The position numbers and the translations under genes were made by a program. Below are positions 171 to 56,630 of a stretch of 59,148 bases of DNA, piece by piece (the first letter of the stretch is position 1; every line of letters begins with the position of its first letter). The DNA lies in the IMG/VR virus record IMGVR_UViG_3300005512_000034, positions 1-59,148 of that record. One strand, given 5' to 3'. The stretch comes from a virus. Lineage: Duplodnaviria; Caudoviricetes. The notes beneath the pieces were generated by a model that had not been told where the DNA came from, searched no databases, and worked only from the letters and a program-made list of their open reading frames with translations.

Positions 171-350
171 ATGACCGACGCCCGCCTCGACAGCATCCTC
201 AGCAAGTTCGACAACCTGACCACCAGCGACGACCTCTGCACGGTGCTCTCTGTCCTCGCCGCGAGCCGCCCCACCGATGCGCAGTGGAGCCGGATCCAGC
301 CGGCCGCCAAGGCGGCGCTCGACAGGATCAAGGCTGACCAGCCCGCGTGA
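171..350 (+). CDS. Small hypothetical protein (59 aa, MTDARLDSILSKFD...)
   Basis: Read by hand; motif promoter and RBS upstream; converges on the methyltransferase 3' end. Confidence 0.7.
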   Translation: MTDARLDSILSKFDNLTTSDDLCTVLSVLAASRPTDAQWSRIQPAAKAALDRIKADQPA

Positions 351-3622: not shown

Positions 3623-3825
3623 GGGCAGTCCCTCGCGTAGTTGCGTTTGACGGCGATCCCGCCGTTCTCGGTCTCGAACACCTCGACGGAGCACGCCTTG
3701 TCGGCGCAGCGCCAGGCCCCGGGGAGGGGCTTCGCGCGCTCCAGCATGACCCCGAGGCCAGCGCCACCAGTAAGACCCAGGACCCAGCAGCACGCCATCA
3801 CCACGAGCAGTCGGCCGCGGGTCAC
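3619..3825 (-). CDS. Small membrane/secreted hypothetical protein
   Basis: N-terminal hydrophobic helix; translational coupling. Confidence 0.55.
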   Translation of the reverse strand: MTRGRLLVVMACCWVLGLTGGAGLGVMLERAKPLPGAWRCADKACSVEVFETENGGIAVKRNYARDCP

Positions 3826-4454
3826 GACCGCTCCCGCTGGATCGGCTCGCCGCGCTTGAGCGCCCGGACGGCCCGCGCACCCTTGGGGGTCAGGCCCCAG
3901 ACTCCGGCGCGCGGGGGCAGGTCTGCGACCCGGTCGGCACGCTTGCCCGAAAGCGACACGCGCGGGATCCGCTCCAGGTAGCCCTCGCCGGTCGCGACCC
4001 GAAGGCGGACCGCAGCGGCGCCGGGGGTGACATCGTCGGCCTGGAGCCAGGTCACCGCGATCAGGCCCTCGTTCTCCGATGCGAGCATCAGCGTCGACTC
4101 CAGCGCGGGGCTCGGCGGGATCGCCCGCTTGCCGGCCTCGACGAACACGGAGATCAGCGCGTCTCGGTCGTCGGGCTCCAGGGCGAGCAGCGTCGCCAGG
4201 GCGGCCTCGACCTCGGGGGAGGCTTCGCGGCCGGTCAGGATCCAGTGCGGCGAGCAGTCGAGGATCTCGCTGATCTCGGCGACCCGGTCGCGGGGCAGTG
4301 GGCGCCGGCCCAACTCGACCCGGCAGAGGTGCGAGGCGTTGAAGCCGAGGTCTCGGCCCATCTGCGCCTGCGAGATCCCGAGTAGTTCACGCTTCCAGCG
4401 GATCCTGGACCCGGGCGTCAGCGCCTCCTCCAGCGTGATGATCGGCGCGTTCAT
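3822..4454 (-). CDS. XRE-family helix-turn-helix transcriptional regulator
   Basis: RIRWKRELLGISQAQMGRDLGFNASHLCRVELGRR...ILDCSPHWILTG. Confidence 0.85.
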   Translation of the reverse strand: MNAPIITLEEALTPGSRIRWKRELLGISQAQMGRDLGFNASHLCRVELGRRPLPRDRVAEISEILDCSPHWILTGREASPEVEAALATLLALEPDDRDALISVFVEAGKRAIPPSPALESTLMLASENEGLIAVTWLQADDVTPGAAAVRLRVATGEGYLERIPRVSLSGKRADRVADLPPRAGVWGLTPKGARAVRALKRGEPIQRERS

Positions 4455-5187: not shown

Positions 5188-5384
5188 GACTTGAACTCAG
5201 CGACTGCGCGGTTGTGCGCCTCCTGCCACGTCTCCTCGTCGTAGAACAGCACTTGGAGAGCGGCGTACTGCGCGCTCGGCCCGAACTGCTGACAGCGGCG
5301 CTTGTGGGCGATCTCGTGCGCAATGCGGATCGCGCGGCCTTGGATTCCGTCGGGCAGCGCCCGGACCTTCTCGACCCAGGTCAT
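5184..5384 (-). CDS. Hypothetical protein (MTWVEKVRALPD...)
   Basis: GGAGG RBS, ATGA coupling. Confidence 0.6.
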   Translation of the reverse strand: MTWVEKVRALPDGIQGRAIRIAHEIAHKRRCQQFGPSAQYAALQVLFYDEETWQEAHNRAVAEFKS

Positions 5385-6469
5385 GGGGCCTCCTGTGATT
5401 GCTCGATCTGCATCAGGACACGGCCAGCGACGAACCCACACAGGGGCACCACGGCATTGCCCAGCGCCTTGCCGCGGGACTTCCAATCCTGCCCCTTGGG
5501 GGCTACGCGGGGGGTGTCTCCCTCCCAGGGCTGCCAGGGGCGCTCTCCGGGTCGGCCTGCGTGAGACTGATCGTTTCCCCGGACAACAGCAAGTAGGTCC
5601 CCTCGGCCGCCTTTGTCGGTGTCGCTGGCCTTGGGGGTAGGGAAGTCCACCCGGGCGGGAAGCCCATCAGCAACTCCACCCAATCCGGGTTGAGCCTGCC
5701 GCGCTGCCCCGGCTCCGTCTGGCTGGACAGTTGGCCCCGCCGCTGCTCTGGGGTGTTGCTGCCCTTGTGGTCCGTGCTGCTGGGGGTGGCCCACGTAGCG
5801 CCAGGGGGCGGCGTAGCGCGCGGCGCGGATGGCGCTGCTCCAGTCGCACCCGGAAGGGTCGGATAGATCCGACCCTTCGACCGCTGGTAGCCGCAGCCGG
5901 TGTTGATCTCGGCCACCGTTGGCGTAGGCCACGATGAAGACGCGGTCCCGCCTGTGAGGGGCGCCGACGGCTGACGCGAGCACACAGTCCCAGACTGCAT
6001 CGAACCCGAGCGCGGCCAGCGTCCACAGAACGGCGCCGAACGCCCCGTGAAGAGGCCGAGTTGGTCTGTCACCCAGCCAGCCGAGGTCAGGCGGCACAAC
6101 GGGGGACTGGTCGCTGAGGAGTCCTGGGACATTCTCGATCACCACGTAGAGGGGTTGGGTTGCATGGATGAGTCGCGCGTAGTGCCACCACAAGCCGGAC
6201 CGCTCACCGTCCAGCCCTGCTCGGTTGCCGGCGTGGCTGAGGTCCTGGCATGGGAAGCCGCCGCACAGCACGTCAATGGGCGGCAGGTCGGCAGGGTCAA
6301 CGGTGGTCACGTCTTCGAAGCGCGGCACGTCGGGCCAGTGCTTCGCCAGCACGTCGCGGCAGAAGGGCTCTTTCTCGACCTGGAAGACGGTCTGACCAAC
6401 GCCAGCCATTTCCAAGCCGAGTTCAAGCCCACCGATACCGCTGAACAGGGAGCCGATTCGGAGGTTCAC
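5381..6469 (-). CDS. C5 cytosine DNA methyltransferase, large (alpha) polypeptide
   Basis: SLFSGIGG (I), GGFPCQD (IV), IENVPG (VI), HRRDRVF (VIII), LGNAVVP (X); motif IX absent in this frame. Confidence 0.92.
   Translation of the reverse strand: MNLRIGSLFSGIGGLELGLEMAGVGQTVFQVEKEPFCRDVLAKHWPDVPRFEDVTTVDPADLPPIDVLCGGFPCQDLSHAGNRAGLDGERSGLWWHYARLIHATQPLYVVIENVPGLLSDQSPVVPPDLGWLGDRPTRPLHGAFGAVLWTLAALGFDAVWDCVLASAVGAPHRRDRVFIVAYANGGRDQHRLRLPAVEGSDLSDPSGCDWSSAIRAARYAAPWRYVGHPQQHGPQGQQHPRAAAGPTVQPDGAGAARQAQPGLGGVADGLPARVDFPTPKASDTDKGGRGDLLAVVRGNDQSHAGRPGERPWQPWEGDTPRVAPKGQDWKSRGKALGNAVVPLCGFVAGRVLMQIEQSQEAP
5503..6132 (-). CDS. Overlapping alternative-frame polypeptide of the C5 methyltransferase (beta subunit carrying motif IX)
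   Basis: Nested ORF with WPRSG, WPTP/WATP repeats and RLNPDWVELLMGFPPGWT. Confidence 0.65.
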   Translation of the reverse strand: MSQDSSATSPPLCRLTSAGWVTDQLGLFTGRSAPFCGRWPRSGSMQSGTVCSRQPSAPLTGGTASSSWPTPTVAEINTGCGYQRSKGRIYPTLPGATGAAPSAPRATPPPGATWATPSSTDHKGSNTPEQRRGQLSSQTEPGQRGRLNPDWVELLMGFPPGWTSLPPRPATPTKAAEGTYLLLSGETISLTQADPESAPGSPGRETPPA

Positions 6470-6855: not shown

Positions 6856-6910
6856 TCCTTGCTACACGGACACTGTAGCTACTGCGGACGAGTAGCGCAA
6901 GCGGGTGATC
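6856..6910 (-). promoter_or_regulatory. Cassette promoter with two overlapping operators
   Basis: GATC-N6-TTGCGC-17-TACAGT; GCTAC-N9-GTAGCTAC-N9-GTAGC (6861-6896). Confidence 0.85.
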
Positions 6911-7621: not shown

Positions 7622-7676
7622 CCCTTGCTACACGGACACTGTAGCTACTGCGGACGAGTAGCGCAAGAGGGCGATC
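7622..7676 (-). promoter_or_regulatory. Cassette promoter with two overlapping operators
   Basis: About 45 bp identical to the 6856-6910 promoter. Confidence 0.85.
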
Positions 7677-11924: not shown

Positions 11925-11980
11925 CTCCTTGCTACACACTCATAGTAGCTACTGCGGGTGCGTAGCGCAAGGAAACGATC
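11925..11980 (-). promoter_or_regulatory. Cassette promoter with two overlapping operators
   Basis: GATC-N6-TTGCGC-17-TACTAT; double palindrome 11931-11966. Confidence 0.85.
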
Positions 11981-12904: not shown

Positions 12905-13207
12905 ATGGCGCGGCCTGACCTGTCCGACTACGGCGTCCGCATGGGGCGCTCTCGTCGCGTCGAGGGGCAACCGGGCGTGGTCGTGGATTTCGACTGCTCC
13001 GAGTTAGTTGCCAAGTTGGAGCGTCTGCGCGACGCGATCGAGGACCTGCCTCCAGCGATCCGCGAGCGGTTGTCGATAGTCTACGGCGACCCGACCATCG
13101 TCGACGACGGCCCCTGCGAGTGGTGCCTGGAGGCCCGCGGGGCCGCACGCCGTGCCGGCGACCCGCAGGCGCACCTGGTCACCTGCGAGGAGCACCGACG
13201 AGGATGA
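12905..13207 (+). CDS. Hypothetical protein with CxxC...CxxH
   Basis: ORF downstream in the cassette; converges on the Dam-like gene. Confidence 0.5.
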   Translation: MARPDLSDYGVRMGRSRRVEGQPGVVVDFDCSELVAKLERLRDAIEDLPPAIRERLSIVYGDPTIVDDGPCEWCLEARGAARRAGDPQAHLVTCEEHRRG

Positions 13208-14093
13208 CCTCGCGCACTGCGCCGCGCTTGCTGGCGTCGCGGTTGATCGTTCGGGCGACCGGCATCTCGTGGGCCTCGAAGCCCTCCGCGGCGTAGCGGG
13301 CGATCCACCCGTCGTTCCAGTGGTTCGTCGAGATGACGTGCGCGCCCGCGTCCCGCAGCTGCGCGAGGAGCTCGAGCAGGTCGACCTGGTCCTGACTGTT
13401 GAAGCCGGCCGCGGTGTACCCGGTCCAGGACTCCTTGACGGCGGGCCCGAACAGGCCAGGAGACGCGCCGTCGTCCTGGAGCCCCCAATAGGGCGGGTCG
13501 ACGAACAGCAGCAGCCGCTCGCCAGCCTGAGCGCGCGCCAGGGCCGCCCGCAGGGTCAGCCTGAAGTCGCGGCAGTGGATCTCCGCGTTGGTCAGCTGCA
13601 TGTGGTCCGAACACGCCCGCAGCGCGTCGGCGAACAGCACCCGGTGATCGGGCGGCACCTTGCCCCAGGGCGTGTTGACGCCGCCCTCGGCGTTGGTCCG
13701 GTAGAGCCCGTTGAAGCCGCACCGGTTGACGTAGATCATGTCGGCCGCGATCTGCACACTCGACTTGCACGGCCCCTTCGCCTTGGAGCACTCGGAAAGC
13801 CGGTCGCGAGCACGCAGAAACACCGGCTTGCTGACCTTCATCCCGCCCAACACACTAACTACAGACTCCACGCTGTCTCGTACACTAGTGTACATCGCCA
13901 CCAACGGGCGCACGGCGTCGCCGAGCAGGGCGTCTCCGGCCATGTGCTGACCGAACGCGAAGTAGAACGCGCCGCCCCCGGTGAAGGGCACGACCAGGCT
14001 CCGGCTCGTCCAGTCCTCGGGCATGTGCGGTTGAATGTGACTCAACACAGACCGCTTGCCGCCTGCCCACTTGACCATCGGCTTGGCTTCCAT
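13179..14093 (-). CDS. dam: Dam-like (D12 class) DNA adenine methyltransferase
   Basis: KWAGGK, PFTGGGA, YVNRCGFNGLYRTN, FVDPPY, GFNSQDQVDL. Confidence 0.9.
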   Translation of the reverse strand: MEAKPMVKWAGGKRSVLSHIQPHMPEDWTSRSLVVPFTGGGAFYFAFGQHMAGDALLGDAVRPLVAMYTSVRDSVESVVSVLGGMKVSKPVFLRARDRLSECSKAKGPCKSSVQIAADMIYVNRCGFNGLYRTNAEGGVNTPWGKVPPDHRVLFADALRACSDHMQLTNAEIHCRDFRLTLRAALARAQAGERLLLFVDPPYWGLQDDGASPGLFGPAVKESWTGYTAAGFNSQDQVDLLELLAQLRDAGAHVISTNHWNDGWIARYAAEGFEAHEMPVARTINRDASKRGAVREVILVGAPRR

Positions 14094-15138: not shown

Positions 15139-15702
15139 TCAGATGTTGAGAGCGGCGGCGCCGACGCCCAGGGCTTGCCATCCATGGGACGCAACCCCGA
15201 AGAGTGGGCCCGGAGCAGCCTTGCGCCCGACGGCGACCGCCTTGCAGCCGCCCCAAGTGTTGATCAGCCACGCGCGGACCTGGGAGTCGCGCGAGCCGCC
15301 GGAGATGTGCATGTGCTTGAGGACCTCGCGCCGGGTGACCATGCAGACGGTCATCCCCAGGAGCAACGCGCGGCCGCGCATCGAGCCGGACTCCTCCGCG
15401 GTCGCGATCAGGTCCGAGCCAGCTGCCGACGAGGTCTTGGAGTGCCCGTAGAACAGGCACCGCTCGATCGCAACCAGCGTGCGCGCGTGTCGGGCCTGGC
15501 TGATCAGCGCTCGCACATCGGCGTTGGGCATCGCCTTCTCGGCACGCTCGACGCGCCACGGCGGGCTCCATGTGCCGTTGGGCAACTGCTGCGCCTTCGC
15601 CTTGCGCAGGACCGCGACGCCGCTGTTGAGCGGGCCAGGGTCGATGCACACGGCGAGCAGGAACTCGCCGGCAGGCGCGCGCGGGTAGAACGTCCCGGGC
15701 AC
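15139..15702 (-). CDS. RuvC-like Holliday junction resolvase
   Basis: CIDPGPLNSGVAV, LVAIER, RREVLKH, HGWQALGVG. Confidence 0.7.
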   Translation of the reverse strand: MPGTFYPRAPAGEFLLAVCIDPGPLNSGVAVLRKAKAQQLPNGTWSPPWRVERAEKAMPNADVRALISQARHARTLVAIERCLFYGHSKTSSAAGSDLIATAEESGSMRGRALLLGMTVCMVTRREVLKHMHISGGSRDSQVRAWLINTWGGCKAVAVGRKAAPGPLFGVASHGWQALGVGAAALNI

Positions 15703-16337
15703 TACTCGGCCGGCGCGGCCTTCGCCGCCTGGGCTTGGTGCGCGTCGAAGGCGTCCCGCGTGTGCCGGAGCACGGTCACGTCGGACACGCCGAACCGCTC
15801 GGCGATGACCCGCAGCGGGGTCTCGTCGATGCGCAGTTTGAGCATCTCCCCGACCTGGGCGCGCGAGACCTTGCGGCGCGACTGCGCCCGGTCCTTGCGG
15901 GCCAACTTCGACTTCATCTGCGAGCGGGCGACCATCTTGGCGATCTCCGCGGCGGGGCGCGGGTTGTCCAGCATCGCGCGGTGCGCGTCGTCGAGCCACC
16001 CGAACATCGGGCACGAGCCCTCCGACTCGATGTGCTGCTCGGCGGCCCACAGTAGGGTCGGGGACTGCCCGGACCGGTCCACATCGCCCACGGGCACAGC
16101 CGAGAACGATTCGACCTGCGCGCGGACCTCGGGCGGGAGCCAGTCCATGACGCGCACGGCGCCCCCGGTGGCCTGCTCGATCTCCACGGCGCGGTCGAGA
16201 CGCGGGGTCCGACCCTGCCGCAGGTAGGAGCCGACGGCCCCCGTCGATAGGCCGATCAGGTCGGCGTATCCCTGCACGGTGATCCCGAGTTCCTCTCGGT
16301 GTTGGGCCATGCGGCCGCCGGGCACAAAGGTGCTCAC
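15702..16337 (-). CDS. Two-HTH transcriptional regulator (Cro/XRE-like N-terminus)
   Basis: ITVQGYADLIGLSTGAVGSYLRQGRTP...IEQATGGAV; C-terminal LRVIAERFGVSDVTV. Confidence 0.8.
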   Translation of the reverse strand: MSTFVPGGRMAQHREELGITVQGYADLIGLSTGAVGSYLRQGRTPRLDRAVEIEQATGGAVRVMDWLPPEVRAQVESFSAVPVGDVDRSGQSPTLLWAAEQHIESEGSCPMFGWLDDAHRAMLDNPRPAAEIAKMVARSQMKSKLARKDRAQSRRKVSRAQVGEMLKLRIDETPLRVIAERFGVSDVTVLRHTRDAFDAHQAQAAKAAPAE

Positions 16338-18084: not shown

Positions 18085-20073
18085 GTGACGACCCGTCTGA
18101 CTTCCATCTCCACGTCCGGCCTCAAGGGCCAGACCTTCACAGAGCCCCTGACGGGGCTCGACCTGTTCGCGGGGCCCAACGGCAGCGGCAAGACGGCGCG
18201 CTTGCAGGTGGTCTCGGCCGCCCTTCGGGGCATCGCGGACACCAGCACCGACCGCGCGCGCGACTGGTTCGGTCCGACCCGCCCCCGAGGCACCGTGTGC
18301 GCCCTGTTCGACGTGCGCGGTGTGCGCCACCGGATCGAGCGGGACCTGCGCGACAGCAACCGCACGAAGCGGGCCGCAGCTGTGACCACGCTCGCGACCA
18401 GCATCGCGGGCGACCACCTGATCCGGTGGGACCTGGACGACTTCGCCAACGCGCCCGACCGGGCCCGCGCGTCGCTACTGACCGAGGCCGCCCGGTGTGC
18501 CGATGTGGCCGGCGCGTGGGACGCGGCCGCCGAGATCAACCGCCTGCGGATGCTGCCGCACCACGCGGGGCGCACCGAGACCGTCCTCGACGCGCTGCTG
18601 CCCGAGGGGGCTGTGCCCGTGTCGTGGATCGACACCGCGATCTCGAAGGCGTCCGACCTGGCCCGCGAGTACAACGCCGCGAAGACCGTCGCCGCCAAGA
18701 CCGTCGAGCGCATGACCGCGGAGGGCCGCCCCACCATGCGGGGGACGCTGGCGCAGGCCCGCGCCCGGGTGCAGGCTGCCGAGGAGCAGGTCGCCGACCT
18801 GAACGCGCAGCAGCGCGAGGCCCAGCAGTCCGACCGGCTCGCGGCCGAGTCGAAGGCGTCGCACGAGGCGTTGCTCCAGCAGGCCGCGTTCGCGCAGGGG
18901 CTCGTCGAGCGGTTGCAAGCCATCATCGACGCCGGACCGGACAAGCCGATCGCGGACCTGGAGCGCGAGATCGACGAGGCTCGGGGCAAGTACGAGCGGG
19001 CGCGCGACCGCCTGCGCCGCGCCAAGGACCGCGCGCTGGAGTTGAAGGCACAGATCGAGATCGCAACCACGACCGAGCCGCCCGAGGTCGAGGGATGGGA
19101 GGTCCTGCCCGACGGGACCTGGCGACACGACGGCGTGTCCTGCGTGTGGGCTTCGACCGACGGCGGGGGGGAGTTGGCTGTCGAGCCCGGCAACGCCGGG
19201 GCGCTGCTCGTGCCCTTCGAGATCATCGACTACATCCGGGGCGGCGGGTCTGGCCCCGCTGCGGTCGAGGCGCTGGAGGTGCAACGCGCCAAGGCGATCC
19301 GGGCAGTGGGTGACGCCCAGGAGTTGGTCGACCTGCTCAGCAAGCGCCTCGTGGCTGCCCGCGGGGCGCGCGAGGATGCGCTGTCGGCCGCCGACGCCAG
19401 GAAGTCGATCGTCAAGGTGCGCGAGGACGTGCGGGCCGCCCAGGCGGCGCTGGAGGCGTGGAGCGAGCGCCAGACGAACGGCGGGACGGTGCTCGCGCCG
19501 AACCCGGCGCACATGGGGGCCGCATACGCCGGCCTGCGGGAAGCGCGCGCCGCGCTGGAGACCCTGGTCAAGGGTAGCGAGTGGGAGAGCATCATGCAGG
19601 GCGCGGTCGCTGACCGGGAGCGCGCGACCCTGGCGTGGCGACAGGCCAAGGAGATCAAGGCCGCGCTCGTCGCGCTCAAGGCCCGGCTCGCGTCCGCCGC
19701 CTACGAGCCGATCGCGCAACTGGCGCAGGAGGTCCTGGACGGGGTCGCGTCGTGGGGCGCGTCCATCTACATCGACGGGCCCGACTCGCTGGGCGTGGTC
19801 GTGGACGGCAAGCGGATCGACCTGTGGGGGCTCTCGCGGTCCGAGCGGGCGATCTTCGGTGCCGCCCTGGCGTCGGCGCTGGCACGCATCACCAAGCAGC
19901 CCTGGCGCGCGGTCGTGCTGGACAACCTGGAGGCGATCAACCCGGGCCGGCTCGCGGAGTTGGTCGCGGTGCTCCAGACCATGGTCGACGACGGCCGGCT
20001 CGACAACGTGATCGGGGCGTTCGCCGCCGAGACGCCGGAGCAGGCGCCCCCGGGTGCCCGGTGGATCGGGTGA
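18085..20073 (+). CDS. SbcC/Rad50-like coiled-coil ABC ATPase
   Basis: GPNGSGKT Walker A, long coiled coil, LSRSE signature, VVLDNLE Walker B. Confidence 0.85.
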   Translation: MTTRLTSISTSGLKGQTFTEPLTGLDLFAGPNGSGKTARLQVVSAALRGIADTSTDRARDWFGPTRPRGTVCALFDVRGVRHRIERDLRDSNRTKRAAAVTTLATSIAGDHLIRWDLDDFANAPDRARASLLTEAARCADVAGAWDAAAEINRLRMLPHHAGRTETVLDALLPEGAVPVSWIDTAISKASDLAREYNAAKTVAAKTVERMTAEGRPTMRGTLAQARARVQAAEEQVADLNAQQREAQQSDRLAAESKASHEALLQQAAFAQGLVERLQAIIDAGPDKPIADLEREIDEARGKYERARDRLRRAKDRALELKAQIEIATTTEPPEVEGWEVLPDGTWRHDGVSCVWASTDGGGELAVEPGNAGALLVPFEIIDYIRGGGSGPAAVEALEVQRAKAIRAVGDAQELVDLLSKRLVAARGAREDALSAADARKSIVKVREDVRAAQAALEAWSERQTNGGTVLAPNPAHMGAAYAGLREARAALETLVKGSEWESIMQGAVADRERATLAWRQAKEIKAALVALKARLASAAYEPIAQLAQEVLDGVASWGASIYIDGPDSLGVVVDGKRIDLWGLSRSERAIFGAALASALARITKQPWRAVVLDNLEAINPGRLAELVAVLQTMVDDGRLDNVIGAFAAETPEQAPPGARWIG

Positions 20074-20657: not shown

Positions 20658-21331
20658 AGTAGCCCCGGCGCCGCCCGCCCGATGACCTCGGCGTACTCGG
20701 CGCGGGAGTGCCGGGACCCGGGCAGCACGATCGCCCGCCCCCCGTGCCGATAGGGGGACGACGGCAGCCTGGCCAGCAGGTCCCCGCGCAGCGCGACGCG
20801 GGTCACGTTGTCCGAGTCGAGCGCCCGCGAGATCCGCCTGGTCCCCAACTTCGGCGCGCCGAACGTCACGCACCGCGAGTCGGGCTCGACCAGCCAGAAG
20901 CCGGTCGCCATGGCGCCGCCCAGCGAGAACCCGGTGACCCACAGGGTGCTCGGCTTGTACCCGTTCACCACACGCATGACCGGGTCGTAGACCTTGCCCA
21001 GCAGCGCCCACCAGCCGGCATGAACCCGGCCGGGCAGGCGAAGCCCCAGGGGGCGCGTCGGGATCGCGAGCGCGTCGGCCAGGACGTTCGTCGCGGTCTC
21101 CTCCTGCGTGTCCGCCACCGTGCCCCGGAAGGCGACGACGACGTGCGGCCCGAGTGTGCCGTCCTCGTGGTCCATGCTGGCGACAAGGGCCCGGGTCGAG
21201 GACAGGGTCGGCTCGACCAACTCGGCGCGGTCGTAGCCCAGGGCCAGGGCCTCGCGGACCGGCTGCGTGGGCTCGGAGACGGCGTCGCACACGGCGAGCA
21301 GGTGCAGGAGATCGGCGCGGGTGTGCTTCAT
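20654..21331 (-). CDS. Class 3 lipase (alpha/beta hydrolase)
   Basis: VVAFRGT, VHAGW, VTGFSLGGAMA (GxSxG), TFGAPKLG, DLLARLP, YRHGG. Confidence 0.88.
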   Translation of the reverse strand: MKHTRADLLHLLAVCDAVSEPTQPVREALALGYDRAELVEPTLSSTRALVASMDHEDGTLGPHVVVAFRGTVADTQEETATNVLADALAIPTRPLGLRLPGRVHAGWWALLGKVYDPVMRVVNGYKPSTLWVTGFSLGGAMATGFWLVEPDSRCVTFGAPKLGTRRISRALDSDNVTRVALRGDLLARLPSSPYRHGGRAIVLPGSRHSRAEYAEVIGRAAPGLL

Positions 21332-26460: not shown

Positions 26461-26487
26461 AGCCTATGGTCACGTCAAGGGCTTTGC

Positions 26488-26542
26488 GATCGTCCGCTTG
26501 CGTTCTGGCGTGTATGCGCTACTATGTCCGTGTAGCAAGGAG
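26488..26542 (+). promoter_or_regulatory. Cassette promoter with operator, copy 1
   Basis: GATC-N6-TTGCGT-16-TACTAT; palindrome 26518-26536. Confidence 0.85.
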
Positions 26543-26547
26543 CCAAC

Positions 26548-26736
26548 ATGACCCGCGCCGACCTCAACGCAGCCCGCATCGAAGCCAGCCAGAAGCACGC
26601 GCGCGCGCTCAAGCGGTGGGAGCGTGCCCGCGCGACGAAGACCTGGGGCCCGCTGGGCGCCGAGCGCTACCAGCAGGCGACTCTGGACATGCGCCGGACC
26701 TACCGCGCCCGCGAGGCCGCATACGGGCGAGCCTGA
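26548..26736 (+). CDS. Small basic hypothetical protein, copy 1
   Basis: 62 aa, AAGGAG RBS. Confidence 0.75.
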   Translation: MTRADLNAARIEASQKHARALKRWERARATKTWGPLGAERYQQATLDMRRTYRAREAAYGRA

Positions 26737-26775
26737 GCAATGGCAGCACGCCCCAGAGTAGCGAAGCCCCCTTGC

Positions 26776-26830
26776 GATCGTCCGCTTGCGTTCTGGCGTG
26801 TATGCGCTACTATGTCCGTGTAGCAAGGAG
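26776..26830 (+). promoter_or_regulatory. Cassette promoter with operator, copy 2
   Basis: Identical to copy 1. Confidence 0.85.
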
Positions 26831-26835
26831 CCAAC

Positions 26836-27024
26836 ATGACCCGCGCCGACCTCAACGCAGCCCGCATCGAAGCCAGCCAGAAGCACGCGCGCGCGCTCAA
26901 GCGGTGGGAGCGTGCCCGCGCGACGAAGACCTGGGGCCCGCTGGGCGCCGAGCGCTACCAGCAGGCGACTCTGGACATGCGCCGGACCTACCGCGCCCGC
27001 GAGGCCGCATACGGGCGAGCCTGA
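26836..27024 (+). CDS. Small basic hypothetical protein, copy 2
   Basis: Identical translation to 26548-26736. Confidence 0.75.
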   Translation: MTRADLNAARIEASQKHARALKRWERARATKTWGPLGAERYQQATLDMRRTYRAREAAYGRA

Positions 27025-27052
27025 GCAATGGCAGCACGCCCCAGAGTAGCGA

Positions 27053-27070
27053 AGCCCCCTTGCGGGGGCT
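27053..27070. terminator. Hairpin between convergent genes
   Basis: AGCCCCC-TTGC-GGGGGCT. Confidence 0.6.
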
Positions 27071-32807: not shown

Positions 32808-33401
32808 ATGAACCGCAGCGACACCGAGTCCGGCGCCGTCTTCTGGCCCCGCGACGACGAGAGCGCCGCCTACCGCCCGCGCTTGTGGCGCACCTGGGAC
32901 GCCCCCAAGCCCCGGGTCGCCTTCGTCGGGCTCAACCCCAGCACCGCGACCGCGGACGCCCTGGACCCCACTGTGCGGCGCTGCGTGAACTACGCGAAGG
33001 CGTGGGGCTTCGGCGGAATGGAGATGCTCAACCTCTGGGCGATCCGCTCGACCGACCCGGCCGGCTTGTGGGCGGAACTCCGCGCTGGCGGCGACGCTGG
33101 AGCAGCCGCGCAGGACGACGGGATCCGCGAGGCGCTCTCGGAGCGCGTGACGCTGGTCGTGTTCGCCTCGGGGCCAGGGTCGAAGGGCAAGGCCGAGGAC
33201 CGCAGGCGGCTCGGCGCGCGCCGGCGCGAGGTCTGGGAACTGGTCCACGCGGCTGGCGTCCAGGCGTCGGCGCTGGTGCTGACCTCGGACGGGTCGCCGG
33301 GGCACCCTCTGTACCTCAAGAAGACGCTCGTGCCGCGCGCGTGGAAGCCGGGGGAATCGGGCCTGGCGTTGCCGGTTCAGTTGCCTTGCAAGGCCGCCTG
33401 A
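32808..33401 (+). CDS. DUF1643 family protein
   Basis: YR..LWR.W, FVGLNPSTA...DPTVRRC, NLWAIRSTDP, GSPGHPLY. Confidence 0.88.
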   Translation: MNRSDTESGAVFWPRDDESAAYRPRLWRTWDAPKPRVAFVGLNPSTATADALDPTVRRCVNYAKAWGFGGMEMLNLWAIRSTDPAGLWAELRAGGDAGAAAQDDGIREALSERVTLVVFASGPGSKGKAEDRRRLGARRREVWELVHAAGVQASALVLTSDGSPGHPLYLKKTLVPRAWKPGESGLALPVQLPCKAA

Positions 33402-34205
33402 TCACCCGACCGGGTGCCCCTCCGCGATGACGTACCAGGGCGTCGCGTGGGTGTCGCCCTGGAAGCGCACGGTGTCCGCGATGTAGGTCCCCGACAGCCG
33501 CTCCGCTTCGACGGTGTAGCGGTTGCCGGGGCGCAGCTGCGGGACGATCAAGCCGGTCACCTCGACCCCGTTCGCCAACTTCGCCGGCTCGCCGATCAGG
33601 TTCCGCGTGCGGCTGCTGAACTGCACGATCGCCTCGGTCGTCGCGCCGCCCTGCTCGACCAGGACGAAGGCGCCGTCTCGGATCATCCAGTCCGACGAGG
33701 TCGAGTCGGCGAGTCGGTCCAGCAGGTCCCGGGCGGGCCCGTCGAAGTAGAACCCCTGCGTGAGGCTCGCCGTCAGGTCCGTCCGGACCGAGCCCCGAGG
33801 CAGGCCCAACTGGACCAGGGCCGCGTCGAGCACCTCCTGGAAGGTCACCGACGTGTCCCAATTCAGCGAGACGCGCGCCTCGCGGTAGGTCTTGCCGCCG
33901 TCCTCGACCTCGATGGTCGTGACCCGGTCAGGCCCGCTCCGGCGCGTCACCACGCCGCCCGGGACCGGCGAACCCACGAAGATCGCGTGCGGGGCGTTGT
34001 AGCCGACCAGGAGCCGCACGGTCGTATCGTCGGCCTCCAGCATCCCGAGCGAGTCGCGCGAGAGGTTGTAGACCTCGATCCGGCCCGCGCTGGGCGTGCT
34101 GCCCCGGTGGTGCTCGACCATGAACCGGGTCCGCAGCCCCGAGACGGATCGGCCGACCTGGCCCGAGGGGCCGAACTGGATCGAAGCGGAGCGGCCGAAG
34201 GGCAT
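33402..34205 (-). CDS. Baseplate hub protein
   Basis: IEVYNLS, LLVGY...IFVG, IEVEDG, GDTH..PWY; leaderless TAGGCT-N5-ATG. Confidence 0.8.
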   Translation of the reverse strand: MPFGRSASIQFGPSGQVGRSVSGLRTRFMVEHHRGSTPSAGRIEVYNLSRDSLGMLEADDTTVRLLVGYNAPHAIFVGSPVPGGVVTRRSGPDRVTTIEVEDGGKTYREARVSLNWDTSVTFQEVLDAALVQLGLPRGSVRTDLTASLTQGFYFDGPARDLLDRLADSTSSDWMIRDGAFVLVEQGGATTEAIVQFSSRTRNLIGEPAKLANGVEVTGLIVPQLRPGNRYTVEAERLSGTYIADTVRFQGDTHATPWYVIAEGHPVG

Positions 34206-34227
34206 GGGGCAGCCTATCCGATCGGGC

Positions 34228-34569
34228 TCAGGACACGTACAGCGTCTCGGTCTCCGACGCGGGCAACTCGTCGGTCGGGTAGAACATCAGGAACGTGGTC
34301 ACACCGATGTCCTCGCGCCGGGGCTCCGCGTTGCCCCGCACGTAGATCACGCCCGCGAGCCCGGTGATGCCGTGGCTCTCGAAGGGGGCCCACGACGTGG
34401 TCAGGCGCACGCCCTGCACGATCGGCGTCCCGGTCGAGTCGCCGAGGTCCATGTACCAGGCGGCCAGCCGTTCGCGCCAGACGAAGCGCAGGGTGTACAC
34501 GGCGTCGCCGAGCGTGACCGTGTAGGAGTGCTCGGGCAGGTCGGGGAAGGCGGGCAGGCGGGTCGGCAT
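34228..34569 (-). CDS. Baseplate plug-like protein
   Basis: YTVTLGDAVYTLRFVWRER..AWYMDL. Confidence 0.75.
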   Translation of the reverse strand: MPTRLPAFPDLPEHSYTVTLGDAVYTLRFVWRERLAAWYMDLGDSTGTPIVQGVRLTTSWAPFESHGITGLAGVIYVRGNAEPRREDIGVTTFLMFYPTDELPASETETLYVS

Positions 34570-35150
34570 CAGATCCCCACTACCCTTGCGGCGACGCTTC
34601 GGTCGCGCGGGAGCGTGGCGCGCATGATTGCCTTGTCCTTTGCGGCAGCCTGGGCGTCGTCCACGACCTCGGCGCCTTGCTGCCCGAGGTTCTGCGCGGA
34701 CGCAGCGCCCGGGACCGCCACAACGGCGACCGGGACCTCGACCGTGAGCACCGTCGCGAACTCGACCTGCTGGAGCACCATGTCGAAGACCAGCGCTCGG
34801 GTCTGGCCCTCGTCGTGCGCGTAGGACTGGATCAGCAGGTCGCGCTTGTCGCCGAGCTTCGAGCCCAGCAGGGTCACGGGGCGACCGATGCTCTCGTCCA
34901 GCCAGTCACGCGCAGCCTGGAGCCTGGCGGCCCCCACGAGGGGTACAGCGCCCGCGGCCGGCGTGTAGGGGGTCTCGGTCACCGCGAGGGTCACGAGCAG
35001 CGTGAGCGGCTGCCTGACGGCGTGGTCCACGACGCTGGAGCCGTCCTCGATCGGGTGCTGCGTCAACTGGACCACCGGCCGGTGCCCCACGCGCATCACG
35101 TTGCCGACCAAGGTCGCGCCGTCGTCTTGTCGGAAGAGGACCATCGCCAT
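34569..35150 (-). CDS. Baseplate/tail tube initiator (Dit-like)
   Basis: TQHPIEDGSSVVDHAVRQP; follows tape measure; leaderless TAGGCT-N6-ATG. Confidence 0.8.
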   Translation of the reverse strand: MAMVLFRQDDGATLVGNVMRVGHRPVVQLTQHPIEDGSSVVDHAVRQPLTLLVTLAVTETPYTPAAGAVPLVGAARLQAARDWLDESIGRPVTLLGSKLGDKRDLLIQSYAHDEGQTRALVFDMVLQQVEFATVLTVEVPVAVVAVPGAASAQNLGQQGAEVVDDAQAAAKDKAIMRATLPRDRSVAARVVGI

Positions 35151-35226
35151 GTGCGCAGCCTATCCGATCGCGGGGCGATCACCTGCTTGCAGTCTCTCGC
35201 CGGGTCCGCTACTGTATCCGTGTAGC
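35151..35226. promoter_or_regulatory. Back-to-back promoters: leaderless (minus) and operator promoter without RBS (plus)
   Basis: Plus GATC-N6-TTGCAG-17-TACTGT; palindrome 35208-35226. Confidence 0.8.
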
Positions 35227-35315
35227 GAAGACAACCCCTTGAGTTCCGCCGGGACCTCTCCGTCCTGCAACTCCCCCCCCCCTTCGTTGACGGGGTTGGA
35301 GAGGCCCGGCCTTGC
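35220..35315 (+). ncRNA. Candidate small RNA: long hairpin with C10 loop
   Basis: GCCGGG(A)CCTCTCC 35248-35261 pairs with GGAGAGGCCCGGC 35298-35310; inner CAAC/GTTG; loop TC10TTC; no RBS/ATG. Confidence 0.45.
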
Positions 35316-37121
35316 TCAGATTGCGGCGCCCGTGAGCGCGGCGCTGGTGCGGCGAGCCTTGGCCCGCGACTCACGCTGGAGCACCTGCTCCAACTGCGCC
35401 TCGTTCATGCCCCCGCCCCCGTTTACGGTGACGCTGTTGGTGTCCCCGCCGAAGGTGTTGGACGTGCTCGATGCGTTGTTGGTGGTGTTCGTCGCGCTGG
35501 TGATCGAGCGGACCAGGTTCGCGCCGGGGATCTGAGACGCGACCGCGCTGGAGAAGCCCCCGCCCAACCCGCCCGCGAGCAACTCGAAGCCGGGGCCCGA
35601 CATGATCTGGTCCTGGAGTGCCGCGATCGCTGCCTTGACCCGGCCGATCGTCTTGCTGATCCGGTCGGCGTTGTCGTCGAGCCGCTCGAAGCCACCCGCC
35701 AGGGCATCCACCCCAGCGGTCGCCGACTCCACGATGAAGATCAGCCCGTCCAGCGCGGTCCCGACCTCGGGCACGGCGATGCCGGCCAGGTTGGCCAGCC
35801 CGTTGATCACCAACTGGAGCCCCGCCTGCACCAAGTCCACCAGCACAGCGCGCAGCGGCGCGGTCGACTCCCACAGATGCCCGAACGCCGCCGCGAGTTC
35901 TCCGGCCGCCTTGCGCAGGTCGCCCGCCTTGTCGGTCAGCCCGTCGAAGCCCTCGACTTGGCTCAGGAAGTGCCCGAGCACCGAGTCGCCGCCCCGGAGG
36001 AACACCATCACGTCCTGGACGGCGAGGGCGATCAGCGTGATGGCCGCCGCTGCGGCGGCGATGGCGGCCACGATCTCGGCTGCCCCGATGCTGCTGATCG
36101 CCGCCACGACCGGGAGCACGACCTCCAGGGCGACCGCCAGGGCCTCGGTCAGTTTGATCACCCACAGCGTGATCTGTGCGCCCGCGATCACGCCTGCGGC
36201 TGCGGTGAACGCCGCCCCGATGCCGAGCACGATGGGAGCCCAACCGCCGATGGTGTCCCGCACGACGCGGTCAGCCCCGACGACGACCCGCTGCACGAGG
36301 CGAATCCCAGCGACCACGCGGTCGGTCCACTTCTCGATCCGCTGCTGGATCAGGTCCCGGTTCGCGACGAACCACTCGCGGAAGCCCGTCAGCATCTCGG
36401 TCAACACCGGCATCAACTCGACGCCGATCGCGTTCTTGAGTCCGCCGACGGCGTCCTTCGCGTCTGCGAGGCGGTCGATGAACTCCTCGCCGGCCGCGGT
36501 CGCTTCCTGGTTGAACACGATCCCGAGTTCGCGCGCCTGGCGCCGCATCTCCTCGATGCCGGCGGCGCCCTGGTTCAGCAGCGGAAGCAACTTCGAGCCG
36601 CCCCGCCCGAAGATCTCCTGTGCAGCTGCCGTCCGCTTGTGCCCCTCCTCCAGGGTCAGCAGCCCGTCGGCGATGCGCTGGAAGGACTCCTCGGGGGCCA
36701 GGTCGACCAGGTCCGCCGCGGCAAGCCCGATGTCTCGGAGCGCGTCCGCCTGGGCCGTCGAGCCCTTCGACGCCTCGACGAGCGTCTGCGCCATCCGACG
36801 GAAGCCCGTCTCCAGGTCGCCCATCTCGGCGCCGGACAACTCCGCGGCCTTGGCGAGCTCCTGGAAGGGCTCGACCGCGAGCCCGAGGCGCTGCGCAGCC
36901 TTCGCCACGTCGTCGAACGTGGAGGCGGTCGTGAGGACCGTCGCGCCGATCGCGCCCATGGCGATCCCGATGCCGGCCGCGACCGTCTTGGCGACCCCGA
37001 GCACGTCGCCCATGGCCCCCTTGATATCGCCGAGGGCGCTGTCGAAGTTCTTGAGGCCCTTGTCGTCGACCTCGACGCCCAACTTGACGAGCAGTTCTCG
37101 GATCGTGTTGCGCTCAGCCAC
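35316..37121 (-). CDS. Tail tape measure protein
   Basis: IRELLVKLG, Ala-rich helical, AAQEIFGRGG..LLPLL; position after chaperone. Confidence 0.9.
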   Translation of the reverse strand: MAERNTIRELLVKLGVEVDDKGLKNFDSALGDIKGAMGDVLGVAKTVAAGIGIAMGAIGATVLTTASTFDDVAKAAQRLGLAVEPFQELAKAAELSGAEMGDLETGFRRMAQTLVEASKGSTAQADALRDIGLAAADLVDLAPEESFQRIADGLLTLEEGHKRTAAAQEIFGRGGSKLLPLLNQGAAGIEEMRRQARELGIVFNQEATAAGEEFIDRLADAKDAVGGLKNAIGVELMPVLTEMLTGFREWFVANRDLIQQRIEKWTDRVVAGIRLVQRVVVGADRVVRDTIGGWAPIVLGIGAAFTAAAGVIAGAQITLWVIKLTEALAVALEVVLPVVAAISSIGAAEIVAAIAAAAAAITLIALAVQDVMVFLRGGDSVLGHFLSQVEGFDGLTDKAGDLRKAAGELAAAFGHLWESTAPLRAVLVDLVQAGLQLVINGLANLAGIAVPEVGTALDGLIFIVESATAGVDALAGGFERLDDNADRISKTIGRVKAAIAALQDQIMSGPGFELLAGGLGGGFSSAVASQIPGANLVRSITSATNTTNNASSTSNTFGGDTNSVTVNGGGGMNEAQLEQVLQRESRAKARRTSAALTGAAI

Positions 37122-37123
37122 GG

Positions 37124-37387
37124 CTACTCCTGCGCCCGCTCCTCCTCAGCGATATCGAGCGCGTCGAGGGCGAGATGCGCCTCCAGCATATCCCCCAGGG
37201 TCCAATGGTCCCGGACCTCGACCAACGTGCAGGGCCAGCGCTGGTCGAGCACGGGCCGCAAGATCCACCAATTCACGCCCCCTCGGGCTGCCCGGTCGAA
37301 GGCGCGGCGGGTGCGAACGCTGAGCCCTCGATCCTCGTCTGACTGCTCGGTCAGTCCTTGGATGTACCGGGCAGCGGCAGAAAACGG
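37124..37387 (-). CDS. Tail assembly chaperone extension, probably reached by -1 frameshift
   Basis: Open -1 frame from CCGTTTT (37381-37387) to ...WTLGDMLEAHLALD; no obvious own RBS. Confidence 0.6.
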   Translation of the reverse strand, partial: PFSAAARYIQGLTEQSDEDRGLSVRTRRAFDRAARGGVNWWILRPVLDQRWPCTLVEVRDHWTLGDMLEAHLALDALDIAEEERAQE

Positions 37388-37758
37388 TTGAGCCGGATCA
37401 CGTTCCACAGCGCCTGGTAGAGCTCCATGTAGTTGCCGAGGTAGGCGGCGTCGAAGTCCAGGTCGTTGCTGAGCGCCTTGCCCGCGCGCATCGTGTTGGA
37501 GAGGGTGTCGCGGATCAGGCCGACCAACTCGGGCGAGGCCAGGGCCTTGGAGATGGTGTCGCCGAAGGCGGACAGGTCGCCCACGTCGCCGTCGCCGTCC
37601 ATGGCGCCGATCAGGTCCATCGCGGGCGCCGCGGTGCGCATCCACGCCAGGGAGACAGGCATGCCCGTCAACGCCCCGTGCAGGACGACCTGGTACTTGA
37701 CCGACTGCCCGCTGGCGTCGGGCACGGTGAACTCTCGTAGGTTCTGCTTGCTGTCCAT
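37351..37758 (-). CDS. Tail assembly chaperone
   Basis: Between tube and tape measure; DFDAAYLGNY.EL...NRF; GAGGAGG RBS. Confidence 0.75.
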   Translation of the reverse strand: MDSKQNLREFTVPDASGQSVKYQVVLHGALTGMPVSLAWMRTAAPAMDLIGAMDGDGDVGDLSAFGDTISKALASPELVGLIRDTLSNTMRAGKALSNDLDFDAAYLGNYMELYQALWNVIRLNRFLPLPGTSKD

Positions 37759-37877
37759 TCTGGACCTCCTCGCTGTCGGGAGCATAGCGGACGGGACCCC
37801 AGAACGCACCAACGCCGCCCCAGGTTGCCCCAGGACGGCGTTTCAGGCCCTCGACCGCCCTGACGGGCGCGGAAGGC

Positions 37878-38336
37878 TCAGACGAACAGCAGGGAGCCGT
37901 GTGCGGCCTTGCTCTTGAACTGCGGCAGGGCGATGCGCCAGACCCGGTCGCCCGCCGTCTTGCCCTTGTCCATCGTGGGGGGCGAGATGAAGGTCGCGTA
38001 CTGCGACGCGCCCGCGTCCCCGTTGACGGTGTCGAGCATCTGGAAGTTGAGCGGCGGGATGGCACCCACGCTGCGAGCGGTCCGCTGCGCGGCGTACAGG
38101 GTCCCGAGCAACTTGTTGGCCAGGCTCGTCTCTTTGACCGTGATGTTCGCGTATGCCAGCGTCGAGTTGAGGACGTTCGCGATGGATTGGCCGTCGGCGG
38201 TCTCCATCATCTCCACGTCGTCCTGGCTGTACTCGAACGCGATCACGCCGCCCTCGGCGCCGCCCGTGACGCGGACGGTGCCGACCATCAGGAAGACGAG
38301 ATCGAGGTTGTAGGTCTTGAGGGGTGCAGCAGCCAC
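37878..38336 (-). CDS. Tail tube protein (DUF3277-like)
   Basis: LKTYN...ADG...ITVKETSLANKLL...RVWRI; follows sheath. Confidence 0.8.
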   Translation of the reverse strand: MAAAPLKTYNLDLVFLMVGTVRVTGGAEGGVIAFEYSQDDVEMMETADGQSIANVLNSTLAYANITVKETSLANKLLGTLYAAQRTARSVGAIPPLNFQMLDTVNGDAGASQYATFISPPTMDKGKTAGDRVWRIALPQFKSKAAHGSLLFV

Positions 38337-38348
38337 GGGGGCCTCCTA

Positions 38349-39434
38349 TCAGGCAGCGAGAGAGGTCTGGCTGGCGTAGACGTTGACGGTGAAGGTCCGG
38401 GCCCCGACTGCGAGCTTGGCGCGCACGGTGAAGCGCAGGCGCTCGGCCGCGATGTCCGCCGCGGTGATGGTCTCGGCGACCGCGGAGACCTCCTCGGGGT
38501 CCGGGTCGAAGTGGTTGGCGCCCTGGCCCTGGGCGAGCCGCCCGTTGAGGATGGCCAAGATCATCGCCTGGCCGCGCCCGTCGATCGTGATCTTCTCGCC
38601 TCGGTTGGACGTGTCGACCACGGCGGCCGCGATATCCTCCTCGACCCGGGTGGCGAACCAGTCGGTCGTGACGATCTCGTAGAGCGCCCGGCCCACGATG
38701 TTCTTGCCGTCGTCGACGAAGTAGCCCTCGGTCGCGTAGGCGAGCCCGACGTTGGCGCCGTTGGTGAAGATGTACTGGCGCTCGGTCTCGGAGATGTCGG
38801 TCGTGAGGCTGTCGCCGCTCTTGACCCGCCCGTACCAGGGCGCGCTCTGGAAGTCCGGGTCGAAGGCACCGCGCGAGGCGGCCCAGCCCATGTCGTTCCA
38901 GTCGGCGTCGGTGTCGTGGTAGAGCCAGCCGGTGCGCTCGTAGGCGGCCGCGCTGCTGAACGCCGAGGGCTGGCCGGAGGTCTTCCAGTCGGCGTTGCTG
39001 GACTGGAAGATCCCGAGCATCTTCTTGTCGTTGGTCTCGATGGCGGCAGCGACCGCGATGGTGTCCGCGTCGGTCCGGCTCTCGTAGCAGACGATGTAGA
39101 AGTCGGGGTCGTGCGCGATGATCGCGGTCAGCGCCGCGGCCTCGGTCTCGGCGGGGCTGGACACGTCGTCGATGTACCCGACCTTCACCTTGGACGGGCT
39201 CGGCGACTGCGCGAACATCCGGGTGACCATGGCCAGCGTGTTCGCGTGGATGTAGCCGGCCGTGTTCGCCGCGGTCGCCTCGGAGAGCGACGAGTAGGTC
39301 GCCGTGCGCTGGCCGTTGAGGCTGTTGTTCGACAGCGCCACGATGATCATGGGCGTCGTGAAGGAAGCCCGGGGGACCGCCAGCGCCGACAGGAAGATCG
39401 TGACCGTGATGTTTGCGTCGTGGGTGAGCGCCAT
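38349..39434 (-). CDS. Tail sheath protein (DUF3383-like, compact)
   Basis: MFAQSPSPSKVKVG, DWF..RVEEDI, KITIDGRG. Confidence 0.8.
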   Translation of the reverse strand: MALTHDANITVTIFLSALAVPRASFTTPMIIVALSNNSLNGQRTATYSSLSEATAANTAGYIHANTLAMVTRMFAQSPSPSKVKVGYIDDVSSPAETEAAALTAIIAHDPDFYIVCYESRTDADTIAVAAAIETNDKKMLGIFQSSNADWKTSGQPSAFSSAAAYERTGWLYHDTDADWNDMGWAASRGAFDPDFQSAPWYGRVKSGDSLTTDISETERQYIFTNGANVGLAYATEGYFVDDGKNIVGRALYEIVTTDWFATRVEEDIAAAVVDTSNRGEKITIDGRGQAMILAILNGRLAQGQGANHFDPDPEEVSAVAETITAADIAAERLRFTVRAKLAVGARTFTVNVYASQTSLAA

Positions 39435-55568: not shown

Positions 55569-56135
55569 TCACCGGAGCATCCATGCACCGGGGGGAGCCT
55601 CGGCCGAGGTGAGCCCGAGGGCCCCGCGCAGGTCGGCCCCGTACAGGTTGGCCCCGGACAGGTCGGCCCCGCGCAGGTTGGCCCCGTACAGGTCGGCCCC
55701 GTACAGGTTGGCCCCGGACAGGTTGGCCCCGGACAGGTCGGCCCCGTACAGGTCGGCCCCGCGCAGGTTGGCCCCGGACAGGTCGGCCCCGTACAGGTCG
55801 GCCCCGTACAGGTTGGCCCCGGACAGGTCGGCCCCGGACAGGTCGGCCCCGCGCAGGTTGGCCCCGGACAGGTCGGCCTCGGACAGGTTGACCCAGCGCA
55901 GGTCGGCCCAGCGCAGGTTGGCCCGGGACCAGTTCTGTTTCGCCATGCTCCAGGCCGGGATGACCCCCAAACCACAAGCCCAGCCCAGCCAACGCGCCCC
56001 GCCAGCGGCGATCAGCCAGCGTTGGTGGTCTGCGGTCCAATCGCCGTCGAAGCCGTCAGGGAATGCGGCGTTGAACCATTCGAGGCCCTCTGCGCAGGCG
56101 TCGAGGGCTGTGAGGGTGTCTTCGGTGATCTTCAC
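55569..56135 (-). CDS. Pentapeptide repeat protein, copy A
   Basis: A(D/N)Lxx repeats in 15-bp units after an ACxEGLEWF N-terminal domain. Confidence 0.92.
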
Positions 56136-56602
56136 GGTGCCTCCGTCGGGGGGAGCCCGAGGGCCCCAGACAGGTCGGCCCCGGACAGGTCGGCCCCGGA
56201 CAGGTCGGCCCAGCGCAGGTCGGCCCCGCGCAGGTCGGCCCCGTACAGGTCGGCCCCGCGCAGGTTGGCCCCGTACAGGTCGGCCCAGCGCAGGTTGGCC
56301 CAGCGCAGGTCGGCCCCGCGCAGGTCGGCCCCGTACAGGTCGGCCCCGGACAGGTTGGCCCCGCGCAGGTTGGCCCGGCGCAGGTCAGCCCGGGACCAGT
56401 TCTGTTTCGCCATGCTCCAGGCCGGGAGTACCCCCAAACCACAGGCCCAGCCCAGCCAACGCGCCCCGCCAGCGGCGATCAGCCAGCGTTGGTGGTCTGC
56501 GGTCCAATCGCCGTCGAAGCCGTCAGGAAACGCGGCGTTGAACCATTCGAGGCCCTCTGCGCAGGCGTCGAGGGCTGTGAGGGTGTCTTCGGTGATCTTC
56601 AC
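56132..56602 (-). CDS. Pentapeptide repeat protein, copy B
   Basis: Near-identical N-terminus and RBS (GACGGAGGCACCGTG); shorter, reordered repeat array. Confidence 0.92.
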
Positions 56603-56630
56603 GGTGCCTCCGTCGAGAATCTGGCCCATT

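Follow-up and report, generated by a model that had tools for sequence, protein, structure and literature searches.

The stretch of DNA analysed here, hereafter the window, is the complete 59,148-nucleotide (nt) virus record IMGVR_UViG_3300005512_000034, an uncultured, myovirus-like phage of high GC content (70%) with direct terminal repeats of 111 nt. In its late region, the tail tape measure gene (35316-37121, minus strand; PHROG tape-measure families, best 5e-41) and the Dit-like gene (34569-35150, minus strand; PF21821, 3.2e-13) are separated by a spacer of 165 nt (35151-35315), which is filled by a plus-strand promoter with no gene behind it, the orphan promoter, and by a long hairpin whose loop carries a run of ten cytosines (C10). 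We propose, as a reading to which we give slightly less than an even chance, that this spacer is an empty moron, in which a live promoter would read into a portable 3'-end C-loop hairpin and give a non-coding RNA of ~90 to 100 nt.

The orphan promoter belongs to a promoter-operator family present on both strands of the window, built of a GATC, 5 to 7 nt, TTGCNN, 16 to 17 nt, and TACNNT lying inside the palindrome GCTAC-N9-GTAGC. A preliminary description of this DNA had singled it out as the only perfect motif promoter without a ribosome binding site (RBS) and ATG, and this is borne out: a Shine-Dalgarno (SD)-like GGAG, AGGA, or GGGA and an ATG or GTG follow within 35 nt in 21 of 22 oriented copies, and the copy at 35208, which reads GTAGC-GAAGAC-AACCCC-TTG, is the only one without them. 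All the family elements are intact at 35177-35226 in this orphan copy, with a -35 TTGCAG (35187-35192), a 17-nt spacer, and a -10 TACTGT (35210-35215) overlapped by the operator-like palindrome (35208-35226). Scored by a leave-one-out position weight matrix, from which three of the 22 copies were omitted (the exact duplicate at 26806, and those at 2614 and 18053, which have no recognisable -35), it reaches 48.3 bits and ranks 6 of 19. The sequence 35187-35215 is unique as a whole (one match at up to three mismatches, none expected), and its two hexamers recur together in the copy at 58728 (minus strand), which precedes a gene with an SD and an ATG. Transcription would start at about 35221-35223, and the 35227-35241 stretch, where sibling copies have their SD and ATG, is either the remains of a translation signal that has decayed or the joint of a recombination. 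The palindrome is present in all family copies and is doubled, in overlapping form, at three early-region promoters (6861-6896, 7627-7662, and 11931-11966). Two helix-turn-helix (HTH) proteins encoded on the minus strand (3822-4454 and 15702-16337) are candidates for binding it. One family promoter also lies within an exact 288-nt tandem duplication (26484-27059), each copy of which consists of a motif promoter and a 62-amino-acid (aa) open reading frame (ORF; 26548-26736 and 26836-27024).

The orphan promoter is one half of a divergent cassette, and four such cassettes lie in the late region, near 29000, 31030, 35180, and 40420. Their common sequence reads CAT-N-GCAGCCTATCCGATC-N-GGGCGATCG-N-TTGCA, in which CAT is the start codon of a minus-strand late gene. 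At our locus (35148-35169, minus strand), the ATG of the Dit-like gene (35150-35148) is preceded by a late -10-like element, TAGGCT (35162-35157). TAGGCT stands 6 nt upstream of the late ATG on the minus strand, with the variant TACGGT in the 40420 cassette, and both this spacing and the TANNNT pattern suggest a late -10 element with a leaderless start. The exact late motif GCAGCCTATCCGATC occurs four times (28980, 30997, 34209, and 35155), each time beside the first ATG of a minus-strand gene. The preliminary description had taken the late genes to be leaderless and so immune to an RNA directed at SD sequences, which holds for those genes that open a late unit (starts at 28984, 30992, 34205, 35150, and 40386) and fails for the internal late genes, tape measure included, which have an SD. 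The copy at 34209-34223 stands alone before the hub gene with no plus-strand promoter beside it, and, at position 34224, a 90 to 97% identical relative in run X1 runs on into promoter-like sequence (TGGGTGATCGTCTGCTTGCGC...), so that the cassettes differ between strains.

Two GATC elements (35166-35169 and 35177-35180) are common to the divergent late promoter and the plus-strand promoter, and both GATC columns are invariant in the alignment of the four divergent cassettes. In most promoter copies a GATC lies 5 to 7 nt upstream of the -35, and a conserved GATC, often within CGATCG, is found upstream of the -35 in nearly every copy. The phage also encodes a D12-class (Dam-like) adenine methylase (13179-14093, minus strand) and an N6/N4 methylase (328-2166, minus strand), and a methylation-dependent control of the GATC-bearing promoters is conceivable.

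The hairpin (35248-35310, plus strand; 63 nt) lies ~26 nt downstream of the orphan promoter and ends 5 nt short of the stop codon of the tape measure gene. Its 22 pairs form four helical segments with one bulged A, 35248-35271 pairing with 35286-35310 around a 14-nt loop (35272-35285) that reads UCCCCCCCCCCUUC, and five additional outer pairs (35240-35244 with 35314-35318) take the stop codon itself (35316-35318) into the outer stem. Folding confirmed the long stem with a C10 loop at the end of the tape measure gene that the preliminary description had noticed: the 106-nt region has a minimum free energy (MFE) of -44.8 kcal/mol on the plus strand (z of -3.63), and none of 200 shuffles was as good, versus a z of -1.24 and 23 of 200 shuffles as good for the minus strand of the same region. 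Three G.U pairs of the plus strand become A.C mismatches on the minus strand, where the G run finds other partners; the outer 13 to 14 pairs are Watson-Crick on either strand. Among 23,628 80-nt windows of the genome, the GC-adjusted percentile is 0.30% on the plus strand and 1.1% on the minus strand. The C10 run (35273-35282) is the only homopolymer of at least 8 nt in the genome, whose runs of C and G number 20 of length 6, one of 7, none of 8 or 9, and one of 10. A second assembly, which is possibly from the same sample and not independent, is 100% identical over 34307-37650, C10 included; none of the run X1 contigs, which are 80 to 99% identical to the window, spans 35011-35344. The hairpin is single copy in the window and also in the one other record in which it has been found, and is thus not multicopy in the manner of repetitive extragenic palindromic elements. 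Searches of the whole window against Rfam gave no match at the gathering score, and lowering the threshold to E values up to 10 for 35100-35420 gave two chance-level matches to unrelated families, with no match to the 6C family.

The other record came from a scan of viral contigs for the two hairpin arms with a free gap between them, which gave a single match, at 1124-1182 of IMGVR_UViG_3300040985_000985 (L106). This hairpin reads CGCTGGGACCTCTCC-AGTGATTCTCCCCCCCC-AGCAT-GGAGAGGCCCGGCGCGC; its 5' arm is identical to that of the window at 14 of 15 nt (CGC[C/T]GGGACCTCTCC) and its 3' arm at 13 of 13 (GGAGAGGCCCGGC), and both hairpins have CTCCCCCCCC in the loop region. Beyond what the search pattern had imposed, they have in common a C run (C8 in L106), flanking CGC and GGC, and the same bulged A, and L106 adds seven further outer pairs. 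The L106 hairpin differs in its shorter C run (C8 against C10), in lacking the inner helix, and in the greater length of its outer stem. By a rough estimate, the probability of a chance match, 3' arm and flanks included, is well below 1e-3, and a scan for the 5' arm followed by C8 gave two other matches, neither of which is a hairpin. The rest of L106 is unrelated to the window (no blastn match and at most 38 bits by tblastx), and blastn of the hairpin against isolated phages gave matches only at an E value of about 10. The strand bias seen in the window recurs: for the C strand z is -3.51, with one shuffle in 200 doing as well, and for the other strand it is -0.86. In L106 the hairpin begins 8 nt past the stop of a plus-strand operon of two genes, which share the overlap GTGA, and a search directly upstream of the hairpin showed no promoter. 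Since this operon and the neighbouring genes are on the strand of the C run, the C strand would be the transcribed form there, at the end of a transcript. L106, a single case, is hence the best available argument that the plus-strand RNA may be the relevant form in the window as well. Looser hairpin patterns gave nine matches, below the prediction of a uniform model. We did not count as family members L114 (13-pair stem, C9 loop) and L108 (CCUCUCC/GGAGAGG, C10 loop), because their stem and C run were imposed by the search pattern. A MAFFT/RNAalifold alignment of four sequences retained six pairs with no compensatory change, and, across 864 kb of other loci, none of 16 C runs of at least 7 nt lies in a strong hairpin.

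The history of the spacer was approached through relatives, which are distant. Megablast of 34000-37500 and tblastn of the Dit-like protein against phages gave no match, and tblastn of the tape measure and baseplate J proteins gave only matches below 35% identity. A word-indexed protein search for close relatives returned the query alone, and an exhaustive HMMER search gave a best non-self match at 47% identity. Viral contigs sought with a single protein gave none, metagenome contigs gave only the identical assembly mentioned above (L006), and genome contigs gave six distant prophage-like loci without any clue to the host. In motif scans of viral contigs, only L004 and L084 share the full promoter motif (L007 being the first 4,681 nt of L084), and their Dit-like proteins are 42 to 43% identical to that of the window (43% for L004). 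In L004, the same antisense promoter lies between the tape measure gene (859-2643) and the Dit-like start (3170), with AAGGAG-N6-ATG behind it, then an ORF of 88 aa and another that overlaps the first. In all nine more distant Dit-like loci, by contrast with the window, a long ORF ends about -6 to 42 nt from the inferred Dit start (distances adjusted by hand); these loci have no spacer, which argues that the spacer of the window is an insertion specific to this lineage. On this comparison the slot is a predicted plus-strand transcription unit, of which the window has a version without cargo. Blastn-short, tblastx, and tblastn with the L004 ORFs found no remnant of a cargo gene in 35227-35315, and nothing above chance. 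In L007 (3701-3760, minus strand), we also observed a cassette ORF ending in a C8 run (Pro-Pro) that lies in the loop of a 6-pair hairpin, GGCCUC...GAGGCC, in a region that folds no better than shuffles (z of -0.04).

Altogether, a plus-strand non-coding RNA from the orphan promoter is plausible, because the promoter is intact, the fold is better on the plus strand, the C strand is the sense strand in L106, and there is no coding signal behind the promoter. We propose a model in which a divergent promoter cassette would have been inserted between the tape measure and Dit-like genes in this lineage, one side of it serving as the leaderless late promoter of the Dit-like gene and the other as an operator-controlled, sigma-70-like promoter of opposite direction, which in a relative would drive small ORFs. 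With the cargo absent from the window, this promoter would meet the hairpin after ~26 nt, and the hairpin would serve, in its C-strand form, to end the transcript or to stabilise it. The product would be an untranslated plus-strand RNA running from ~35222 to ~35311-35320, with full complementarity to the 3' untranslated end of the mRNA of the tape measure gene. Probably it would keep antisense transcription out of that gene. Moreover, since such an RNA would be the exact complement of the 3' hairpin of the tape measure mRNA, its C10 loop could kiss the G10 loop of the late mRNA, and the two may pair for as long as the promoter is active. The model builds on what was observed: the promoter's membership of the motif family and its lack of a gene, the folding statistics of the hairpin, the comparison of slots among relatives, and the homologue in L106. 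Its predictions are an active promoter, the position of the start, transcripts that end at the hairpin, and whatever regulation follows from them.

The proposed unit recalls three known systems and is a member of none of them. Morons are independent transcription units inserted between late genes, as described in PMC3594210. Like them, the unit of the window has its own promoter between two genes that adjoin in more distant relatives, and the content of its slot varies between related strains. Unlike them, it has no protein-coding gene, its only open frame being a shadow of the tape measure frame; it shares its cassette with a divergent late promoter and is directed against the late operon. 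The OOP RNA of phage lambda is a short antisense RNA, made from a promoter-plus-hairpin unit, against the 3' end of cII. The predicted unit of the window is likewise short, without an ORF, convergent with its neighbour, and complementary to the 3' end of the neighbour's mRNA, whereas it has no U-tract terminator, no sequence relation to OOP, and an overlap with the coding region of at most 3 nt. Because of this small overlap, the target would be the 3' untranslated hairpin. For OOP, an action via RNase III-dependent cleavage is reported by Krinke and Wulff (1987, 1990), as cited in PMC5869508. The third system is the 6C small RNA (sRNA) of high-GC Gram-positive bacteria, named B11 in PMC10470900; PMC6486639 describes the C-rich loops of 6C as binding G-rich ribosome binding sites without a chaperone, and mentions that C-rich stem-loops may act as alternative terminators in this group of bacteria. 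The likeness is a stable hairpin that shows a C run in its loop, and the differences are that the hairpin of the window is phage-borne, has one loop instead of two or three, matches no Rfam family, and has no preference for phage start regions as targets.

Several observations weigh against the empty moron. Among sequencing runs, no RNA run containing the sequence was listed. The folding energy of the hairpin is strong, and it is not unique in the genome. The stem is GC-rich as for a terminator (22 to 27 pairs, -42.7 kcal/mol for 35240-35318), but a U tract is absent after it on both strands (tails CUUGCUCAG on the plus and GGAACUCAA on the minus strand), and a terminator scan made no call at the hairpin. 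Since canonical terminators are not enriched in this genome (7 versus 5.4 expected, 1 versus 5.1, and 2 versus 3.9), the missing U tract has little force as a test, and other units end with bare GC hairpins, at 37812-37845 and at 27045-27070, where the second duplicated plus-strand cassette (ORF 26836-27024) ends in GAAGCCCCCUUGCGGGGGCUC without a U tract. The three other plus-strand cassettes of the late region have no hairpin at their end, where they overlap or abut convergent late genes. The solitary late motif at 34209 gives no clear sign that the late promoter depends on a plus-strand partner, or that such a partner is retained for a function of its own. A single homologue of the hairpin is known, in L106, and the intact promoter may simply mean a recent deletion or a recombination at the motif edge.

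An alternative that we regard as possible, if rather unlikely, is that the hairpin ends or stabilises the late, minus-strand tape measure mRNA. In that case the plus-strand promoter would be kept for the operator and GATC that serve the divergent late promoter, for example through one regulator shutting early and activating late transcription, and the plus-strand RNA would be a by-product. The Dit-like gene lacks an SD, TANNNT stands 6 nt ahead of its ATG, and a leaderless Dit-like gene would leave read-through from the tape measure gene untranslated, so that a stop between the two makes sense. In the same operon, the U-tract-less hairpin at 37812-37845 folds at -47.4 kcal/mol on the minus strand and -31.6 on the plus strand. 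The distance from the operator centre to the late ATG is also nearly fixed, at 66 to 67 nt in three of the four cassettes and 56 nt, about one helical turn less, in the fourth (hand count), and the outer pairs of our hairpin would form in the late mRNA as well. The preliminary description had listed a minus-strand termination or processing hairpin as an alternative to an sRNA; a termination hairpin turned out to be at least as well supported, the L106 hairpin lying just past an operon-end stop. Against a role in the late mRNA, the minus-strand fold is no better than shuffles, whereas the 37812-37845 hairpin is strongly minus-strand specific; the three G.U pairs are lost as mismatches on that strand, in L106 the strand with the G loop runs antisense to the genes on either side, and the late motif at 34209 has no operator.

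Turning from the late mRNA to the plus-strand RNA, the preliminary description had favoured an sRNA encoded by the phage, its C-rich loop exposed for pairing with G-rich or SD sequences; acting in trans, such an RNA would find its targets in mRNAs of the phage or the host, much as 6C does. The loop is single-stranded and C-rich on the plus strand only, it recurs in L106 as C8, and chaperone-independent binding of G-rich sites is on record for 6C (PMC6486639). The predicted pairing did not support it: the mean RNAduplex energy of the C loop was -7.30 over 66 phage start regions versus -7.04 over 1,000 random windows, and the fraction at or below -12 kcal/mol was 0.091 versus 0.106. In addition, 199 of 200 shuffled loops paired better on average than the real one, because G runs are scarce in the genome (one G7 and none longer). 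The longest complement of the loop in the genome (12 nt, 19165-19176, inside a plus-strand gene) is at chance level (E of 1.2). With a single C loop instead of two and no 6C match in Rfam even at E values up to 10, we consider such an sRNA improbable.

We give a similarly small chance to a neutral relic, that is, a promoter and a stray hairpin without selected function, left after a recent deletion or an inter-promoter recombination removed the cargo. The cassettes vary by strain, as the insertion at 34224 in run X1 indicates, the cargo is present in the L004 slot, and similarity to the sibling copies stops directly after GTAGCGAAG, as for a joint at the motif edge. Moreover, the exact 288-nt tandem duplication of another cassette implies that recombination is active in the window. 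Against a relic, no cargo remnant was found, an unrelated phage has a homologue of the hairpin that chance does not explain, and homopolymers are otherwise strongly avoided throughout the genome, so that an unselected C10 would be unexpected. Least probable by far is a small protein of 98 aa read from TTG 35239 to 35535, antisense through the 3' end of the tape measure gene. This TTG does lie 13 nt after GTAGC, as starts do in the siblings, and 98 codons follow without a stop. However, GAAGAC takes the place of a GGAG core upstream, the hairpin stem would enclose the start, the third positions of its codons fall on those of the tape measure gene (GC by position of 0.56/0.59/0.90, a shadow-frame signature here), and no Pfam match was found at E values up to 0.1.

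An extension of the empty moron, which we put forward as speculative and improbable in this full form, would be that a portable C-loop module (GGGACCUCUCC, a C8 to C10 loop, GGAGAGGCCC) moves between unrelated high-GC phages and becomes a regulatory RNA when it lands behind a bare promoter, either kissing the G10 loop to time the tail genes or binding G-rich RBS of the host as 6C does.

The surrounding minus-strand genes are those of a tail operon. Upstream of the tape measure gene lie the genes for the tail sheath (38349-39434), the tube (37878-38336), and the tail assembly chaperone (37351-37812); the hairpin at 37812-37845, in the gap between tube and chaperone, has 14 pairs. Beyond the Dit-like gene lie those for the baseplate plug (34228-34569) and the baseplate hub (33402-34205). 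A DUF1643 gene (32808-33401, plus strand) with its own motif promoter is inserted against the baseplate operon and abuts the hub stop. Elsewhere in the window, a tRNA-Arg (TCT; 20844-20934, minus strand) is the sole tRNA gene, and two neighbouring pentapeptide-repeat proteins (55569-56629, minus strand) explain a repeat family with a 15-nt period (D1). The most unusual fold of the genome after GC adjustment lies at 6350-6440 on the minus strand (z of -5.3; -48.5 versus -27.9 kcal/mol), within a 1.28-kb stretch without a confident ORF (5188-6465).

We know of no well-described sRNA chaperones in high-GC marine hosts, in which, to our knowledge, terminators with a canonical U tract are few. Production of the RNA would make the spacer a clear-cut natural example of a moron slot converted into a gene for non-coding RNA within a tail operon, in a phage lineage without a cultured member. 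It would also give a first hint that phages of high-GC marine hosts have C-loop hairpins in common as modules. Should the locus be only an insulated dead-end promoter, it would still record the gain, emptying, and loss of promoter cassettes at the borders of genes.

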